Virus record (IMG/VR): IMGVR_UViG_2541047930_000003
From: a virus
Taxonomy: Duplodnaviria; Heunggongvirae; Uroviricota; Caudoviricetes
Direction: 5' to 3' (one strand)
Length of the DNA: 51,780 bases
Below the pieces are notes generated by a model that saw only the letters and a list, made by a program, of their open reading frames with translations, did not search any database and was not told the DNA's origin. Shown here one piece after another: positions 6,231 to 48,522 of this stretch; position 1 is the stretch's first letter, and each line of letters begins with the position of its first letter. Made by a program: the position numbers and the translations under genes.

Positions 6231-6660
6231 AATTATCTCCATTTTCACAAATGAACTTTGTTGATGCGGTGCCTGGTGCCTCCAGGTGACGTTAACCAGT
6301 TAACAATTAACGCCGGATAATCCACCCATAACTCTGATGCTTTTAACTGTTCCGCGTGCGCTTAGCCGCATTCACCGCATCACAAAATTCACTTTAAAAA
6401 GGGCGGACATCAGCCGAACTTCAAGAAAAAACTGATGCCGCCAAGGCTACACACAGCAATGTCGTTATTTACAACCGGAGGCGCACTCCCACCATTTAAA
6501 TTTAACAGACAAGACCGACTCTTTATGGATACCGGAAATGCGCCTTCGTGTTGTGCCCGGTTTTATTTCACCACCTCCGGGCTTCGGTGGTCTCGGCTAT
6601 ACCCCTACAGCGAGAGCTTGTGTTAACATTTCAATACCCTTACAGTTGAGAGTTATTGAT

Positions 6661-7149
6661 ATGTTGGATGTATTTACTCCATTGTTGAAACTTTTTGCTA
6701 ACGAGCCACTCGAAAGACTTATGTATACGATTATCATTTTTGGTCTCACTCTCTGGCTGATACCGAAAGAGTTTACTGTCGCATTCAATGCTTATACTGA
6801 AATACCTTGGCTCTTTCAGATTATCGTTTTTGCCTTTTCTTTCGTGGTCGCCATTTCCTTCTCAAGATTGCGAGCACATATTCAAAAGCATTATTCATTA
6901 CTACCAGAGCAACGTGTATTGCTTCGTTTATCTGAGAAAGAAATCGCTGTATTTAAAGATTTCCTTAAAACAGGAAATCTTATTATCACTTCTCCTTGCC
7001 GTAACCCGGTTATGAAAAAATTAGAACGGAAGGGCATCATTCAACATCAGAGTGATAGCGCAAACTGTTCTTATTATCTCGTCACCGAAAAATACTCCCA
7101 TTTTATGAAGTTATTCTGGAACAGCAGGAGTAGACGTTTTAATCGTTAG
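6661..7149 (+). CDS. sieB: Superinfection exclusion protein B (162 aa)
   Basis: MLDVFTPLLKLFANEPLERLMYTIIIFGLTLWLIPKEF... hydrophobic N-terminus; Met42 of ORF 6538..7149; recognised as Rac SieB. Confidence 0.85.
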   Translation: MLDVFTPLLKLFANEPLERLMYTIIIFGLTLWLIPKEFTVAFNAYTEIPWLFQIIVFAFSFVVAISFSRLRAHIQKHYSLLPEQRVLLRLSEKEIAVFKDFLKTGNLIITSPCRNPVMKKLERKGIIQHQSDSANCSYYLVTEKYSHFMKLFWNSRSRRFNR

Positions 7150-42395: not shown

Positions 42396-42425
42396 ACAGC
42401 CCGCCGGTTCAGGCGGGCTTTTTTG
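42396..42425 (+). terminator. Rho-independent terminator after lom
   Basis: cagcccgccggttcaggcgggcttttttgtgg. Confidence 0.65.
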
Positions 42426-42435
42426 TGGAGTGGAT

Positions 42436-44814
42436 ATGGCAGCAGTAAAAATCTCAGGTGTGCTGAAAGATGGTGCGGGAAAACCAATACAGAACTGCAC
42501 TATTCAACTGAAGGCAAAGCGTAACAGCACCACGGTACTGGTGAACACGGTGGCCTCTGAAAATCCGGATGAAGCCGGACGTTACAGCATGGATGTTGAG
42601 TATGGCCAGTACAGCGTCACCCTGCTGGTTGAAGGTTTTCCGCCTTCACATGCCGGGACCATTACCGTCTATGAAGGTTCCAGACCAGGTACGCTGAATG
42701 ATTTTCTCGGCGCCATGACGGAAGATGATGTCATGCCGGAGGCATTGCGTCGTTTTGAGGAAATGGTGGAAGAAGCGGCACGCAACGCTGAAGCCGCCTC
42801 TCAGAGCGCAGCGGCGGCAAAGAAATCCGAAACTGCAGCGGCATCATCGAAGAACGCGGCGAAAACCTCAGAAACGAATGCAGCTAACAGCGCACAGGCG
42901 GCAGCGACCTCACAGACTGCATCGGCAAACTCCGCGACAGCAGCCAAAAAATCAGAAACCAACGCGAAAAACAGCGAGACAGCCGCAAAGACGAGCGAAA
43001 CCAACGCAAAGTCCAGCCAGACGGCAGCGAAGACCAGCGAAACGAATGCCAAAGCCAGTGAAACTGCGGCAAAAAACAGCCAGGTTGCAGCAGCCCAAAG
43101 CGAGAGCGCGGCAGCCGGTTCTGCGACTTCAGCAGCTGGATCAGCAACTGCTGCGGCTAACAGCCAGAAAGCTGCGAAGACGAGTGAAACTAACGCAAAG
43201 TCCAGCCAGACGGCAGCGAAGACCAGCGAAACGAATGCCAAAGCCAGTGAAACTGCGGCGAAAAACAGTCAGGATGCTGCAGCCCAAAGCGAGAGTGCCG
43301 CAGCTGGTTCTGCAAGTGCGGCGGCTTCTTCTGCCACTGCATCAGCCAACAGTCAAAAAGCTGCAAAAACCAGTGAAACCAACGCAAAGGCGAGCGAGAC
43401 TGCGGCGGCTAACTCGGCGAAAGCATCCGCTGCAAGCCAGACGGCTGCAAAAGCAAGTGAAGACGCAGCCAGAGAGTATGCAAGCCAGGCTGCGGAGCCG
43501 TATAAACAAGTTTTGCAGCCGCTTCCAGATGTGTGGATACCGTTTAACGATTCACTGGATATGATTACGGGCTTTTCGCCATCATATAAAAAGATTGTTA
43601 TTGGTGATGATGAAATAACGATGCCTGGTGACAAGGTTGTTAAGTTTAAACGCGCATCGAAAGCAACCTATATTAATAAATCTGGTGTGCTGACAGAGGC
43701 TGCCATTGACGAGCCGCGATTTGAACGTGATGGCCTGCTTATTGAGGGGCAAAGAACTAATCTTCTGCTTAATTCAACAAATCCATCTAAATGGAATAAG
43801 TCAGGCAATCTGGAACTCACAGAAATATCCACGGATTCTTTTAATTTTACTTATGGGAGATTTACTGTAAAAGATACTCTTATTGATCAGACAAGTGCGA
43901 TTAATATCGTAACGGTTTCTGGCAGTAAAGGATTTGATGTCACAGGTGATGAAAAATATGTGACCATTTCATGCCGTGTCAGAAGTGATGTTGAAAATAT
44001 AAGGTGTCGTTTAAGATTTGAACATCATGATGGTTCTACTTACACTTTTTTGGGAGATGCTTACCTCAATTTATCAACACTTGTAATTGATAAGACTGGT
44101 GGTGCAGCAAATCGTATTATTGCAAAGGCTGTAAAAGATGAGGCTACTGGTTGGATTTTCTATCAGGCTACAATTAATGCACTAGATACAGAGAGCATGA
44201 TTGGTGCGATGGTTCAATATGCTCCAGTAAAAGGTTCAGGCACAGCATCTGGAGACTATCTGGATATCGCAACTCCACAAGTGGAAGGTGGATCAAGTGC
44301 TTCGTCATTTATTGTAACTGATATAACTGCAAGCACTCGCGCAAGCGATATGGTGACAGTCCCAATCAAGAATAACCTTTATAATCTTCCTTTTACGGTT
44401 CTTTGTGAGGTACATAAGAACTGGTATAAAACGCCAAATGCAGCGCCACGTGTTTTTGATACCGGTGGTCATCAAACCGGAGCGGCTATTATTCTTGGCT
44501 TCGGTCGTTCAACAGATTATGACGGATTTCCTTATTGCGATATTGGAGGAGCTAACAGACGGGTAAACGAAAACGCATTGCTTGAAAAAATGGTTATGGG
44601 GATGCGTGTAAAGTCAGATCAGTCTACGTGCTCAGTAAGTAACGGGCGTATATCCAGCGAAACAAAAGCCACATGGTCCTATATTCAGAACACCGCAATT
44701 ATCCGTATTGGAGGCCAGACTACAGCCGGGTTACGTCATTTATTTGGTCATGTCAGGAATTTCAGAATATGGCACAAGGCATTGACTGATGCTCAGGTGG
44801 GGGAGTTAATCTAA
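42436..44814 (+). CDS. stf: Side tail fibre protein (Stf-like, 793 aa) with lambda-Stf-like N-terminus, SETNAK tandem-repeat shaft and divergent AT-rich C-terminal domain
   Basis: MAAVKISGVLKDGAGKPIQNCTIQLKAKRNSTTVLVNTV... matches lambda Stf N-terminus; Met3 of ORF 42430..44814; C-terminus ends FRIWHKALTDAQVGELI. Confidence 0.85.
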   Translation: MAAVKISGVLKDGAGKPIQNCTIQLKAKRNSTTVLVNTVASENPDEAGRYSMDVEYGQYSVTLLVEGFPPSHAGTITVYEGSRPGTLNDFLGAMTEDDVMPEALRRFEEMVEEAARNAEAASQSAAAAKKSETAAASSKNAAKTSETNAANSAQAAATSQTASANSATAAKKSETNAKNSETAAKTSETNAKSSQTAAKTSETNAKASETAAKNSQVAAAQSESAAAGSATSAAGSATAAANSQKAAKTSETNAKSSQTAAKTSETNAKASETAAKNSQDAAAQSESAAAGSASAAASSATASANSQKAAKTSETNAKASETAAANSAKASAASQTAAKASEDAAREYASQAAEPYKQVLQPLPDVWIPFNDSLDMITGFSPSYKKIVIGDDEITMPGDKVVKFKRASKATYINKSGVLTEAAIDEPRFERDGLLIEGQRTNLLLNSTNPSKWNKSGNLELTEISTDSFNFTYGRFTVKDTLIDQTSAINIVTVSGSKGFDVTGDEKYVTISCRVRSDVENIRCRLRFEHHDGSTYTFLGDAYLNLSTLVIDKTGGAANRIIAKAVKDEATGWIFYQATINALDTESMIGAMVQYAPVKGSGTASGDYLDIATPQVEGGSSASSFIVTDITASTRASDMVTVPIKNNLYNLPFTVLCEVHKNWYKTPNAAPRVFDTGGHQTGAAIILGFGRSTDYDGFPYCDIGGANRRVNENALLEKMVMGMRVKSDQSTCSVSNGRISSETKATWSYIQNTAIIRIGGQTTAGLRHLFGHVRNFRIWHKALTDAQVGELI
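42975..43320 (+). repeat. Roughly 189-bp near-identical tandem direct repeat (2 copies) inside stf
   Basis: gcaaagtccagccagacggcagcgaagaccagcgaaacgaatgccaaagccagtgaaactgcggc... recurs 189 bp later. Confidence 0.8.
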
Positions 44815-45095
44815 TGAAAGATTTAACACTCAAATTTGTCGACAGGGCCGACTTTTCGGCCTTTATGGAGAGTATCGGCTATTATGATGATGAGTCGATG
44901 CAGGATGATATTCTTATTGACGTGATAGGTAACGTGTACAAAGAAACCGGAGAACTTACCGAAGATGGCGAGCCGGTATGTGTTAAGGAAGACGGATATT
45001 TTGTAAACGTGCGCATCATTAATGATGCAAAAAAATCGTCAATATTCGATGAATACGTGGTTGCTGTTGAGCATCAACTTCGTGGCTGGATGTGA
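44814..45095 (+). CDS. Hypothetical acidic protein (93 aa) between the two fibre genes
   Basis: ORF 44814..45095, overlaps stf stop; no family recognised. Confidence 0.4.
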   Translation: MKDLTLKFVDRADFSAFMESIGYYDDESMQDDILIDVIGNVYKETGELTEDGEPVCVKEDGYFVNVRIINDAKKSSIFDEYVVAVEHQLRGWM

Positions 45096-45104
45096 GGAAG
45101 AAAA

Positions 45105-46145
45105 ATGGCTACATCGACAGTAATTCCTGAAGACATCAAAACGCTAAAATCCGACGTTAGCAAATTAAAAAACGATCAAGGAAGCTACGCAACAAAATCA
45201 TATGTAGACAGCAAAGATGAAACCGTTGGTGACTGGTCTGCTTCATGGTATCAGCAGGTATTGCCAACTAGCGGAGCTATATTTGGGAGAAAACTCCGCT
45301 CAACTCACAGGACGGCAGGTGTTGAGGATGCGTATTGCGAACTATACCTCAAAAAATGGATAGACAGTCCAGGTAACGCAATGGCGCGCCTTAACCTGAA
45401 CGATAACGGGACAAACATTTGCTGGGACTTTACCAACCTTTATGGCGGTACGATGATTTTTCCCGGTGACAGCGGATACCTCAAAATGGGTAACTGCCTT
45501 ATGTCATACAGTAAGCGTGGAAGTAACGCGCTTATTAAATTTGATTACACCGACACATTACAGATCAAATATGCCAATCATGGGTCAACCATGACATTAA
45601 ACACACAGGGAACCGCTTATGCTGGTGTTACTGCTCAATTGTGGGGCAACTCCAGCCGTCCTGTTGTTTATGAAGTCGGTGTTGATGGTGGCGCTTATAT
45701 GTTCTATGCGCAGAAAACTACCAGCAATACCTACGAATTAACGGTTAACGGCGCGTGCAATGCAAGTGCATTTAATCAAGGCTCTGACCGGGATCTGAAA
45801 GACAATATTCAGGTGATCGATAATGCAACCGACCGCATTCGTAAAATGAACGGCTATACATACACGCTTAAAGAAAACGGTATGCCTTACGCTGGTGTTA
45901 TTGCACAAGAAACCCTGGAAGCCATCCCCGAAGCCGTAGGGTCTATGATGAAATATCCAGACGGCGGGAGTGGATTAGATGGAGAAGAAGGTGAACGGTA
46001 TTACACTGTAGATTATTCTGGTGTTACTGGCTTGCTTGTTCAGGTAGTCAGAGAGTCAGACGACAGAATAACAGCACTGGAAGAAGAAAACGCAGAATTA
46101 AGACAAAGATTATCTGCAATTGAGGCGGCGCTTGCGTCTAAATAA
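45105..46145 (+). CDS. Tail fibre / tailspike-like protein with C-terminal S74 intramolecular chaperone domain (346 aa)
   Basis: C-terminal SDRDLKDNIQVIDNATDRIRKMNGYTYTLKENGMPYAGVIAQE then coiled coil, matching the S74 auto-processing chaperone signature. Confidence 0.6.
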   Translation: MATSTVIPEDIKTLKSDVSKLKNDQGSYATKSYVDSKDETVGDWSASWYQQVLPTSGAIFGRKLRSTHRTAGVEDAYCELYLKKWIDSPGNAMARLNLNDNGTNICWDFTNLYGGTMIFPGDSGYLKMGNCLMSYSKRGSNALIKFDYTDTLQIKYANHGSTMTLNTQGTAYAGVTAQLWGNSSRPVVYEVGVDGGAYMFYAQKTTSNTYELTVNGACNASAFNQGSDRDLKDNIQVIDNATDRIRKMNGYTYTLKENGMPYAGVIAQETLEAIPEAVGSMMKYPDGGSGLDGEEGERYYTVDYSGVTGLLVQVVRESDDRITALEEENAELRQRLSAIEAALASK

Positions 46146-46150
46146 TATTA

Positions 46151-46178
46151 AGGGGCCGAGCGCCCCGTTTTATTGGGT
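46151..46178 (+). terminator. Rho-independent terminator after the second fibre gene
   Basis: ggggccgagcgccccgttttatt. Confidence 0.65.
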
Positions 46179-46181
46179 AGG

Positions 46182-46478
46182 ATGAAAATGGATATAACAC
46201 CTTTCCTTCATGCTCTTTGTGCTGTGGCTGCGCAGCTACTGATTGGTCTTTTTACCGGGAACTGGGCTTACGGAGCGATAGCCGGTTGTACGTTCTTCAT
46301 TGCGCGTGAACACACCCAGGCAGAATATCGCTGGATTGAAATGTTCGGGCATGGCAAGCGGATTAACATGCCGTGGTGGGGCGGTTTTGATCCGCGCGTG
46401 TGGGATGTGGCAAGCATGATGGATTTTGCTGTGCCGGTGGTGGCGTGTCTGCTGGTCTGGCTGTTGGTTAATCGCTAA
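46182..46478 (+). CDS. Hypothetical small inner-membrane protein (98 aa, 2 predicted TM segments)
   Basis: Met4 of ORF 46173..46478; hydrophobic stretches at both ends. Confidence 0.4.
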   Translation: MKMDITPFLHALCAVAAQLLIGLFTGNWAYGAIAGCTFFIAREHTQAEYRWIEMFGHGKRINMPWWGGFDPRVWDVASMMDFAVPVVACLLVWLLVNR

Positions 46479-46990: not shown

Positions 46991-47704
46991 GTGGATAAAA
47001 AACTAATTGCATTTTTGTGCACACTTATAATTACTGGTTGCTCGGATGGGATCGGTGATTCACCTTCGCCACCGGGAAAGAATGTAGAATTAGTCGGAAT
47101 TCCAGGGCAAGGTGTCGCTGTTGCTTCAAATGGCACATCTCCAACATTTGGGAGCAACAGTACTGACTTTCCTGATGTTTCAATAATGAGCACAGGGGGA
47201 GCGATGCTTACTGTTTGGGCCAGACCTGTCCGTAACTGGCTTTGGGGATATACTCCGTTTGATTCAGTAAGTTTTGGAGAGAATCGGAACTGGAAGGTTG
47301 TGGATGGTAAAGATGCCGGTACAGTGAAATTTGTTAATGTTGCCCAGGGGACTTGCATGGAGGCCTTTAAAAACGGGGTGATACATAATACCTGTGATGA
47401 TAATTCGTTATCTCAGGAGTTTCAGTTACTGCCTTCTACTAATGGTAATGTGCTTATAAGAAGTAGTGCCTTGCAGACGTGTATAAGAGCAGACTATTTA
47501 AGCAGAACTATACTGTCACCGTTTGCTTTTACAATCACCCTTGAGAAGTGTCCTGGTGCAAAAGAAGAAACGCAAGAAATGCTATGGGCAATAAGTCCAC
47601 CTGTCAGAGCGGCAAAACCAAATCTGATTAAACCAGAATTAAGACCATTCAGACCATTGCCAATTCCACCTCATGACAAACCTGATGGAATGGAGGGAGT
47701 ATGA
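46991..47704 (+). CDS. cdtA: Cytolethal distending toxin subunit A (lipoprotein, 237 aa)
   Basis: GTG start (Val37 of ORF 46883..47704) 7 nt after GAGGAGG RBS; lipobox LIITGCS; ricin-B-like CdtA sequence; 714 bp consistent with CDT-I cdtA. Confidence 0.88.
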   Translation: MDKKLIAFLCTLIITGCSDGIGDSPSPPGKNVELVGIPGQGVAVASNGTSPTFGSNSTDFPDVSIMSTGGAMLTVWARPVRNWLWGYTPFDSVSFGENRNWKVVDGKDAGTVKFVNVAQGTCMEAFKNGVIHNTCDDNSLSQEFQLLPSTNGNVLIRSSALQTCIRADYLSRTILSPFAFTITLEKCPGAKEETQEMLWAISPPVRAAKPNLIKPELRPFRPLPIPPHDKPDGMEGV

Positions 47705-48522
47705 AAAAATTATTATTCCTGTTAATGATTTTGCCGGGTATTTCTTTTGCAGATTTAAGCGACTTTAAAGTTGCAACCTGGAATTTGCAGGGCTCAAATG
47801 CACCGACAGAAAATAAATGGAACACACATGTTCGACAACTTGTCACGGGAAGTGGTGCTGTTGATATCCTGATGGTTCAGGAGGCTGGTTCAATACCATC
47901 TTCAGCTACACTAACGGAACGTGAATTTCGTACACCAGGTATCCCAATGAATGAGTATATCTGGAATACTGGAACGAATAGCCGTCCACAGCAGCTTTTT
48001 ATTTATTTTTCGCGAACTGATGCTCTTTCTAATAGAGTAAATTTAGCGATAGTATCTAACAGAAGAGCTGATGAGGTGATTGTATTATCACCTCCAACAG
48101 TGGCATCGCGTCCGATCATTGGAATAAGAATAGGTAATGATGTTTTCTTCTCAACTCATGCATTGGCAAACCGAGGTATAGATTCTGGAGCAATTGTTAA
48201 CAGTGTTTTTGAGTTTTTCAACAGACAAACAGATCCTATAAGACAGGCCGCTAACTGGATGATTGCAGGAGATTTCAACCGTTCACCTGCTATGTTATTT
48301 TCAACACTTGAGCCGGGAATCCGTAATCACGTGAATATTATTGCACCACCAGATCCAACGCAGGCCAGTGGTGGAGTGCTTGATTATGCTGTAGTTGGAA
48401 ACTCAGTGAGTTTTGTGCTTCCCCTGTTGAGGGCTTCGCTGTTATTTGGGTTGTTAAGAGGGCAAATTGCCTCTGATCACTTTCCGGTTGGCTTCATTCC
48501 CGGAAGAGGAGCTAGAAGATGA
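47701..48522 (+). CDS. cdtB: Cytolethal distending toxin subunit B (DNase I-like genotoxin, 273 aa)
   Basis: Signal peptide; DLSDFKVATWNLQGSNAP...DILMVQEAG CdtB signature; ATGA overlap with cdtA. Confidence 0.92.
   Translation: MKKLLFLLMILPGISFADLSDFKVATWNLQGSNAPTENKWNTHVRQLVTGSGAVDILMVQEAGSIPSSATLTEREFRTPGIPMNEYIWNTGTNSRPQQLFIYFSRTDALSNRVNLAIVSNRRADEVIVLSPPTVASRPIIGIRIGNDVFFSTHALANRGIDSGAIVNSVFEFFNRQTDPIRQAANWMIAGDFNRSPAMLFSTLEPGIRNHVNIIAPPDPTQASGGVLDYAVVGNSVSFVLPLLRASLLFGLLRGQIASDHFPVGFIPGRGARR

Follow-up and report, generated by a model that had tools for sequence, protein, structure and literature searches.

A three-gene cassette that probably builds a composite side tail fibre with an exchangeable tip in a lambdoid prophage carrying cytolethal distending toxin type IV

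We analysed a 51,780-nucleotide stretch of viral DNA, IMG/VR record IMGVR_UViG_2541047930_000003 (the whole of which is called the window below), and concentrated on the side tail fibre gene stf and the two open reading frames (ORFs) behind it. Their products are named here A (Stf), B (a protein of 93 amino acids, aa), and C (a protein of 346 aa). The results favour, with a probability of about 0.62, the view that stf, B, and C are a single portable lateral-fibre cassette from which a composite side tail fibre is built. Judging from sequence comparison, C is probably an exchangeable tip that plugs onto Stf and not a second independent fibre. A sequence-only reading of the window had suggested two distinct receptor-binding fibres. 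Two different receptor-binding parts are indeed probable, but separate fibres are not what the data favour, C being without an anchor and its N-terminal motif being tied to the C-terminal part of A and to B.

All three ORFs lie on the plus strand, as seen in the ORF listing and by direct reading: stf at 42430..44814, B at 44814..45095, and C at 45105..46145. At the A-B junction, TAATG, the ATG of B shares its A with the TAA stop of stf. C begins with an ATG 9 nucleotides (nt) past the TGA of B, and a ribosome-binding site, AGGAAG, is read on the same strand within these 9 nt. A terminator-like GC hairpin followed by a T-run (46152..46166, plus strand) closes the unit after C; a matching terminator-like hairpin lies after lom, just upstream of stf (42398-42419). 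The two hairpins bracket stf, B, and C as a single unit, and the three genes form a tightly coupled cassette. It sits after J and lom, as in lambda, within a lambdoid prophage that has a full-length gene set from integrase through J, lom, and stf. The distance from the stop of B to the next start was 9 or 12 nt in every cassette examined (45093-45107 in the window; loci L001 to L007, L099, and L101), so that B and the following ORF, be it C or the membrane protein described below, always share a frame. This constant gap is most simply explained by conserved spacing of the ribosome-binding site. The usual tail fibre assembly gene, which had been noted as missing right after stf, is not found there: neither B nor C gave a Tfa-family match in Pfam or NCBIfam (only the ORFs after stf, and not the window as a whole, were checked for Tfa).

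The signature of a self-cleaving chaperone domain had been recognised by eye in the 346-aa protein, and a family-model search bore this out. Residues 227-278 of C match Pfam PF13884 (Peptidase_S74) with E=6.5e-14 and 52.4 bits, compared to a cut-off of 22, and the strings SDRDLKDNIQ and YTYTLKENG start at aa 227 and 251, respectively. C also matches PHROG 4563, "tail fiber protein," over 346 of its 346 positions (E=1.9e-214). Both matches are far beyond chance. The spacing of the catalytic dyad, S-D-x-x-x-K, is present as S227-D-R-D-L-K232. Across 42 aligned homologues, both residues are nearly invariant, and the dyad aligns with SSDRRIK of the solved S16 gp37 chain 6F45, to which the profile of these homologues also connects the chaperone domain. 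At the level of sequence, the chaperone domain of C is a standard S74 member; neither a missing profile match nor a missing dyad, either of which would have spoken against the first reading, was observed. It occupies the extreme C terminus (aa 227-346 of 346; 45783..46142, plus strand; Ser227 codon at 45783-45785 and Lys232 codon at 45798-45800) and ends in a helix, 304-344, modelled with moderate confidence. PF13884 was the sole Pfam match of C, and no recognisable tail-attachment domain was found in the protein.

The remainder of C has the makings of a distal or branch fibre subunit with an intramolecular chaperone. In the AlphaFold2 monomer model, a helix at 9-30 is followed by a beta-rich body (58-214), the chaperone domain, and the terminal helix. 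The N-terminal motif MATSTVIPEDIKTLK (45105..45149, plus strand), a putative attachment motif, is the only segment common to the C proteins of lambdoid, Drexlerviridae, Queuovirinae, and T5-like phages. The helix at aa 9-30 (45129..45194, plus strand) would form a short coiled coil, with I11, L14, V18, and L21 read from the sequence as heptad positions. Ahead of the presumed cleavage site, at aa ~165-222 (45597..45770, plus strand), lies a domain resembling that of the T4 fibre protein gp34: the profile of the 42 homologues matches the C-terminal region of gp34 (4uxe, 5nxf, and 9x3r; E=5e-9 to 1e-7). This segment, and the C-terminal two-thirds of C as a whole, also match the C-terminal tips of the 1,210-aa and 1,567-aa tail fibre PHROGs 6578 and 5668. 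C is thus probably a short fibre whose chaperone domain acts in cis and cleaves itself off. The cut is predicted, on the model of T5 pb1, to fall before Ser227; it would leave a 226-aa mature C that exposes the gp34-like domain as its tip.

Protein A (794 aa from a GTG start; the RefSeq start is an ATG 6 nt downstream) would be the proximal side tail fibre and would link the cassette to the tail. In RefSeq it is called "prophage tail fiber N-terminal domain-containing protein." Its aa 5-134 match PF08400 (phage_tail_N; E=7e-67), its N terminus matches the solved chain 9e7m, "Tail fiber protein" (E=8e-49), and its full length belongs to PHROG 1419; no PF13884 match was obtained in the Pfam scan. 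An Ala/Ser/Thr-rich repeat shaft follows (42970..43407, plus strand; 189-bp unit, 2.3 copies, Tandem Repeats Finder score 624, 84% matches). The 189-bp repeat encodes a KTSETNAK-type shaft and is a likely source of the length variation among the 742- to 868-aa upstream Stf reading frames of related loci. The distal part of the protein, aa ~351-794 (~440 aa; 43480..44811, plus strand), is a conserved C-terminal cassette that we propose as the platform for B and C. It contains a GTA_spike_fiber domain at aa 437-638 (43738-44343, plus strand; NCBIfam NF048003, E=7e-16) and ends in a LamG/galectin-like region, an assignment based on a weak Laminin_G_3 match of a homologous fragment and on the label "galectin-like" given to Gp22 of the T5-like phage IrisVonRoten (PMC11990801). 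Unlike the N-terminal halves of A, which vary with the tail type of the phage, the C-terminal cassette is conserved: it is 44-74% identical in Drexlerviridae, Seuratvirus, Nonagvirus, T5-like, and rV5-like fibres, and the full range of identities is 44-93%, with T5-like FGS017 at the upper end; tblastn found it in 206 phage records.

The A-B-C order recurs in phages with very different tails: lambdoid HannyBb, Tritos, and 2G7b, Nonagvirus ESCO3, T5-like Salmonella phage FGS017 and IrisVonRoten, Drexlerviridae XY3, and Seuratvirus KurtStettler. In each, a Stf-type fibre gene is followed by a ~92-aa gene overlapping its stop and, 9 to 12 nt further on, by an S74 protein; the cassette is also present in Dhillonvirus phages. 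In HannyBb and Tritos, B and C are 92-94% identical to those of the window. Among 5,426 complete E. coli genomes, 1,131 contained B+C DNA, and 520 held at least 80% of it; among phage records, the arrangement is represented in ~190-200. Several phage-collection records (MG065692, MG065653, OR848352, OR847733, and others) bear Campylobacter or Listeria labels but contain cassettes of T5-like or rV5-like E. coli phages; these are probably mislabelled or contaminant sequences, and host counts should be read accordingly.

Across lineages, the C proteins share only ~15 N-terminal residues, M-x-T-x-T-[VI]-I-P-x-D-I-x-x-L-K, beyond which they diverge completely, with lengths of 245, 346, 351, 510, 574, and 581 aa. 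When IMG/VR was searched for this motif with a degenerate DNA pattern, B was found immediately upstream in 114 of 115 sites, and the remaining site had no upstream sequence; thus, no motif site lacked B where sequence upstream of it exists. The body of FGS017 C (from aa 28-49 on) recurs in Gordonclarkvirinae and Wifcevirus fibres behind other N termini. Since the same body is reused in this way, the first 30 to 45 residues of C seem to behave as a system-specific adaptor. The phages that bear the motif have in common the A C-terminal cassette and B and not the tail tip, which suggests that C rides on Stf. Because C has no anchor of its own and its motif travels with the A cassette and B across unrelated tails, attachment to Stf in a composite or branched fibre is the arrangement to which the comparison points.

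Modular exchange is evident in the cassette. Among closely related E. coli prophages, 80 IMG/VR loci have near-identical B but carry one or the other of two C alleles, of 346 and 234 aa; the alleles have the first ~20 residues in common, carry a chaperone domain each, and assort independently of the Stf tail variants. The 234-aa allele (loci L029 and L016, other IMG/VR loci, 6292-6996) consists of a long coiled coil, ~45 non-helical body residues, and the chaperone domain, with S-S-I-R-Y-K where the 346-aa allele has S-D-R-D-L-K, and resembles the 245-aa protein of Drexlerviridae XY3. Within A, the last 364 aa of the window protein are 93% identical to those of FGS017 (L003) and 73% to those of HannyBb (L001), but the last 120 aa are 95% identical to HannyBb, as are B (92%) and C (94%). 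This pattern suggests a recombination breakpoint inside stf, ~120 codons before its end (mosaic junction within 43720-44811). The last 120 aa of A, B, and C are co-inherited in the window, HannyBb, and ESCO3.

Protein B starts with an ATG and, as had been remarked, is acidic (isoelectric point 4.19; 21 D+E compared to 9 K+R). It had been called unassigned, and this still describes it well: no Pfam or NCBIfam family was matched, and PHROG 1361, of which B is a full-length member (E=1.7e-46), is a family of unknown function. B occurs in 186 phage records with a taxonomic profile nearly that of the A C-terminal cassette. It directly follows an A-type fibre gene in the nine modules and the contigs examined, is adjacent to it in every record opened, and is translationally coupled to it in 9/9 modules. 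Cassettes without C, in which A and B are intact, were found in ev243 and in two lineages of E. coli prophages, one of which numbers 398 sequences; B in C-less cassettes has a ratio of nonsynonymous to synonymous substitution rates of 0.37, from one usable pair. In rV5-like myoviruses, the Stf C-terminal cassette and B are likewise kept, and the next gene has no C-type motif. The C-less cassettes indicate that A does not need C and that B is tied to A. Since B is coupled to A and is kept where C is absent, we take it to be a partner dedicated to the C-terminal cassette of A.

More distant relatives of B were sought as well. A scan of species-representative genomes with narrow search patterns returned three loci only (Escherichia ruysiae, an Escherichia sp., and a contig of a Collinsella metagenome-assembled genome, a probable contaminant), which is a poor guide to how widespread B is, and single-sequence IMG/VR scans with distant B proteins added six loci. 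An exhaustive profile search yielded 98 clusters, ~10 of which are 400- to 2,700-aa proteins with three to nine matched stretches; these were judged motif-level or repeat-inflated and not homologous. In Pfam, most of the large proteins that were scanned proved to have PKD repeats, with one CHAT/TPR protein besides; P0326, P0335, and P0356 are among the PKD-repeat proteins. Their matches fall mostly on the hairpin G-Y-x-V-x-V-x-(I/V)-x-D of B (the G-Y-F-V-N-V-R-I region), which resembles the PKD signature, so that the similarity is probably due to a PKD-like strand motif and not to homology. GAPDH matches in a sequence search of the PDB with B, at E ~0.05, were dismissed as chance.

We infer from these comparisons the following arrangement of the fibre. 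The lambda-type N-terminal domain would attach A to the tail tip, and at its distal end A would present a domain of polysaccharide-binding type (GTA-spike-fibre, LamG, or galectin-like). C is expected to be a homotrimer made up of the attachment motif (aa 1-15), the coiled coil, the beta-rich body, the gp34-like tip, and the S74 chaperone. The chaperone would fold the C trimer in cis and then cut itself off before Ser227 by means of Ser227 and Lys232, leaving a mature tip of ~24.7 kDa (aa 1-226). C may dock by its N-terminal motif at the distal end of A, either together with B or by way of it. Receptors could then be bound at two places on each side fibre, by the lectin-like domain of A and by C as the exchangeable tip.

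Other explanations were considered for the same genes. Many phages carry several separately anchored fibres, and C could be a second receptor-binding fibre of this kind, attached to the tail tip or baseplate independently of Stf. It is complete and fibre-like, with a coiled coil, a tip, and a chaperone domain of its own. In the branched-fibre phage DT57C, moreover, weak density seen by electron cryomicroscopy was read by the authors as the fibre LtfB folded back onto the tail tip (PMC10713586). We nonetheless regard a separate fibre as improbable, because nothing but PF13884 is recognisable in C, the same C motif is found in phages with unrelated tail tips that have the A C-terminal cassette and B in common, the motif never occurs without B where upstream sequence exists, and homologous fibre bodies that are attached elsewhere have different N termini. 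Still less probable is a role of C as a trans-acting chaperone for Stf that is not a fibre of the virion. The database names "putative lateral tail fiber chaperone" (KurtStettler) and "chaperone of endosialidase" (XY3 and ESCO3) speak for it, as do the lack of an S74 domain in Stf, the lack of a Tfa-family match among the ORFs after stf, and the very small mature part of the 234-aa allele, ~113 aa. However, the S74 chaperone domains of endoNF, T5 pb1, and S16 gp37 act in cis on a trimeric beta-structure directly N-terminal to them, and C has such a cis substrate in the domain whose homologues are found in T4 gp34 and at the tips of 1,200- to 1,500-aa fibres. Cassettes without C keep an intact Stf, which is therefore independent of C, and it is the C alleles that vary like receptor-binding proteins, whereas the Stf C terminus that would have to be folded is conserved. 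Finally, CDT-IV loci are often described as prophage remnants, and the cdt-IV and other cargo genes downstream in the window might suggest that stf, B, and C are inert cargo of a defective prophage that no longer makes a fibre. We give very little credence to this: the three ORFs are intact and their catalytic residues conserved, identical copies occur in several unrelated isolates, the lambdoid gene set runs at full length from integrase to J, and isolated plaque-formers (HannyBb, Tritos, 2G7b, and ESCO3) carry 93-94% identical B and C.

The role of B within a composite fibre is a question of its own. Our tentative choice, at a little under even odds, is an assembly chaperone in a Tfa-like role, the partner of the Stf C-terminal cassette. 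It is possible, though doubtful, that B is instead a structural adaptor at the A-C junction, a virion joint subunit needed to dock C, comparable to T4 gp35, which sits between gp34 and gp36. For such an adaptor speak the position of B between A and C in every C-bearing cassette, 9 to 12 nt before C, the inheritance of B and C together with the final 120 aa of A in the window, HannyBb, and ESCO3, the loose tracking of the C N-terminal type by B clusters, a conserved L-R-x-W tail at the C terminus of B whose low model confidence is typical of a partner-binding peptide, and the annotation of IrisVonRoten Gp23 as "tail fiber protein." Against it stands the retention of B, tied to A, in cassettes that have no C to dock.

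Several observations weigh against the composite fibre or the place given to B in it. The last 364 aa of A are 93% identical between the window and FGS017, yet B is only 41% identical; since B thus evolves much faster than the part of A it would serve, a tight, specific A-B complex is a poor fit. B clusters follow, loosely, the N-terminal type of C (MATST or MVTKT), and to judge by this B could serve C instead. The AlphaFold2 model of B, an alpha/beta sandwich with a predicted local distance difference test score (pLDDT) of 82.9, has no informative structural relative, and its fold offers no hint of function. That of C is mediocre (pLDDT 63), and a Foldseek search with it against the PDB gave no significant match, nothing falling below E=0.049; a monomer model appears too poor for a fold search when the protein is expected to be an intertwined trimer. 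The structure predictions are of monomers only, so that contact of A with C and of B with C is argued from sequence comparison and analogy, and the co-occurrence of the motif with B is dominated by related E. coli prophages, which are not independent events.

A wider proposal, which we consider rather unlikely, is that the last ~120 aa of Stf together with B form a universal "socket" for exchangeable self-processing tips with a ~15-residue "plug" in at least five groups of siphoviruses (lambdoid, T1-like, T5-like, Queuovirinae, and Dhillonvirus), with rV5-like myoviruses keeping the cassette and B without a tip. B would then be a new stoichiometric joint or assembly subunit of the virion, with a fold of its own and a gp35- or Tfa-like role, unrelated to both. 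If this is true, the plug and socket could conveniently be used to engineer receptor specificity in several families of phages.

Directly downstream of the fibre cassette lies the cytolethal distending toxin type IV (CDT-IV) operon, with cdtA at 46991-47704, cdtB at 47701-48522, and cdtC at 48519-49091. An identical region is present in an E. coli isolate from a human blood culture, where it is annotated as cytolethal distending toxin type IV. With cdtABC behind the fibre genes, the window is a CDT-IV-carrying lambdoid prophage. Between C and cdtA, a ~97-aa hydrophobic, apparently membrane protein is encoded at 46185-46478 (the ORF is listed from a TTG at 46173); it belongs to PHROG 1443, gave no Pfam match, and may have a superinfection-exclusion or cargo role. 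Its gene trails the fibre cassette in lambdoid prophages regardless of C: C precedes it in the window and HannyBb, and B directly precedes it in ev243 and in the P0299/P0285 lineages. Beyond cdt, on the minus strand, are genes for an alpha/beta hydrolase (49161-50645) and an omptin-family outer-membrane protease (50830-51780). In the identical genome, integrase and DUF1627 pseudogene fragments come after these two genes, which suggests either that this end of the prophage is rich in cargo or that two elements are combined here.

For the host range of CDT-IV prophages, these results imply that what matters is probably a single composite fibre, in which a conserved lectin-like domain is combined with a tip that can be swapped, and not two fibres. 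Since at least two tip alleles (346 and 234 aa) occur beside near-identical B, tip exchange behind a constant plug of ~20 residues is a plausible route of host change for such prophages. B is a widespread component of fibre loci that is amenable to direct testing. The three-gene arrangement is common among E. coli phages and prophages, and its architecture has already been published for the homologous T5-like phage IrisVonRoten (PMC11990801), so that a composite fibre will not surprise specialists in phage fibres.

Among known systems, lambda Stf-Tfa has the same N-terminal tail-attachment domain (PF08400) and the same place after J and lom, whereas in the window the conserved cassette has supplanted the distal half of Stf, and B and C stand in the place of Tfa. 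The K1F endosialidase, T5 pb1, and S16 gp37 (PF13884, MEROPS S74) share with C the chaperone domain, its Ser-x4-Lys dyad, and its placement at the C terminus behind a trimeric beta-structure. What precedes the chaperone is unrelated save for the T4-gp34-like domain, and C is much shorter and without a particle anchor.

Phages DT57C and DT571/2 have branched, L-shaped fibres made of LtfA and LtfB (PMC4728585 and PMC10713586), and the addition of a second receptor specificity by LtfB was shown genetically (PMC4728585). By analogy, C would likewise be a shorter, chaperone-bearing fibre that has no tail anchor, rides on the main lateral fibre, and contributes a second specificity. However, in DT57C ltfB comes directly after ltfA with no B gene, LtfA has an S74 domain of its own whereas the window Stf has none, and the N terminus of LtfB (MSRPLMPKSGAM...) is unrelated to the motif of C; docking of LtfB was proposed to occur via segments like phiEco32 gp14/gp15 (PMC4728585 and PMC10713586). 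Having no B gene and an unrelated LtfB N terminus, LtfA/LtfB was set aside as a direct model and serves as a functional analogue only.

The closest counterpart is IrisVonRoten (Bas32), a phage of the BASEL-2 work (PMC11990801), whose Gp22, Gp23, and Gp24 are homologues of A, B, and the N terminus of C. The C-terminal cassette of Gp22 is 54% identical to that of the window Stf in the BLAST match and 64% over the last 364 aa. The 92-aa Gp23, 38% identical to B, overlaps the stop of the first gene, and the chaperone-bearing Gp24 starts 9 nt later with the motif MVTKTVIPTDITKLK, compared to MATSTVIPEDIKTLK in the window. Attachment of Gp24 to the proximal fibre Gp22 was predicted with AlphaFold-Multimer, and the galectin-like domain at the Gp22 C terminus was considered a possible additional receptor-binding domain; the small protein between the proximal and distal fibres, Gp23, is not discussed in that work (PMC11990801). 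The two systems differ in that the window fibre is anchored by a lambda-type PF08400 N terminus and not by the T5 LtfC collar system, and in that C has 346 aa and a single tip, whereas Gp24 has 574 aa and is T-shaped with two receptor-binding domains (Gp12-like and T5-like). No BLAST similarity between C and Gp24 was found past the N terminus, and the T-shaped distal fibre is a feature that varies within the cassette family. Overall, the sequence comparison places the window cassette with the IrisVonRoten type, as a form with a lambda-type anchor and a shorter, single-tip C.

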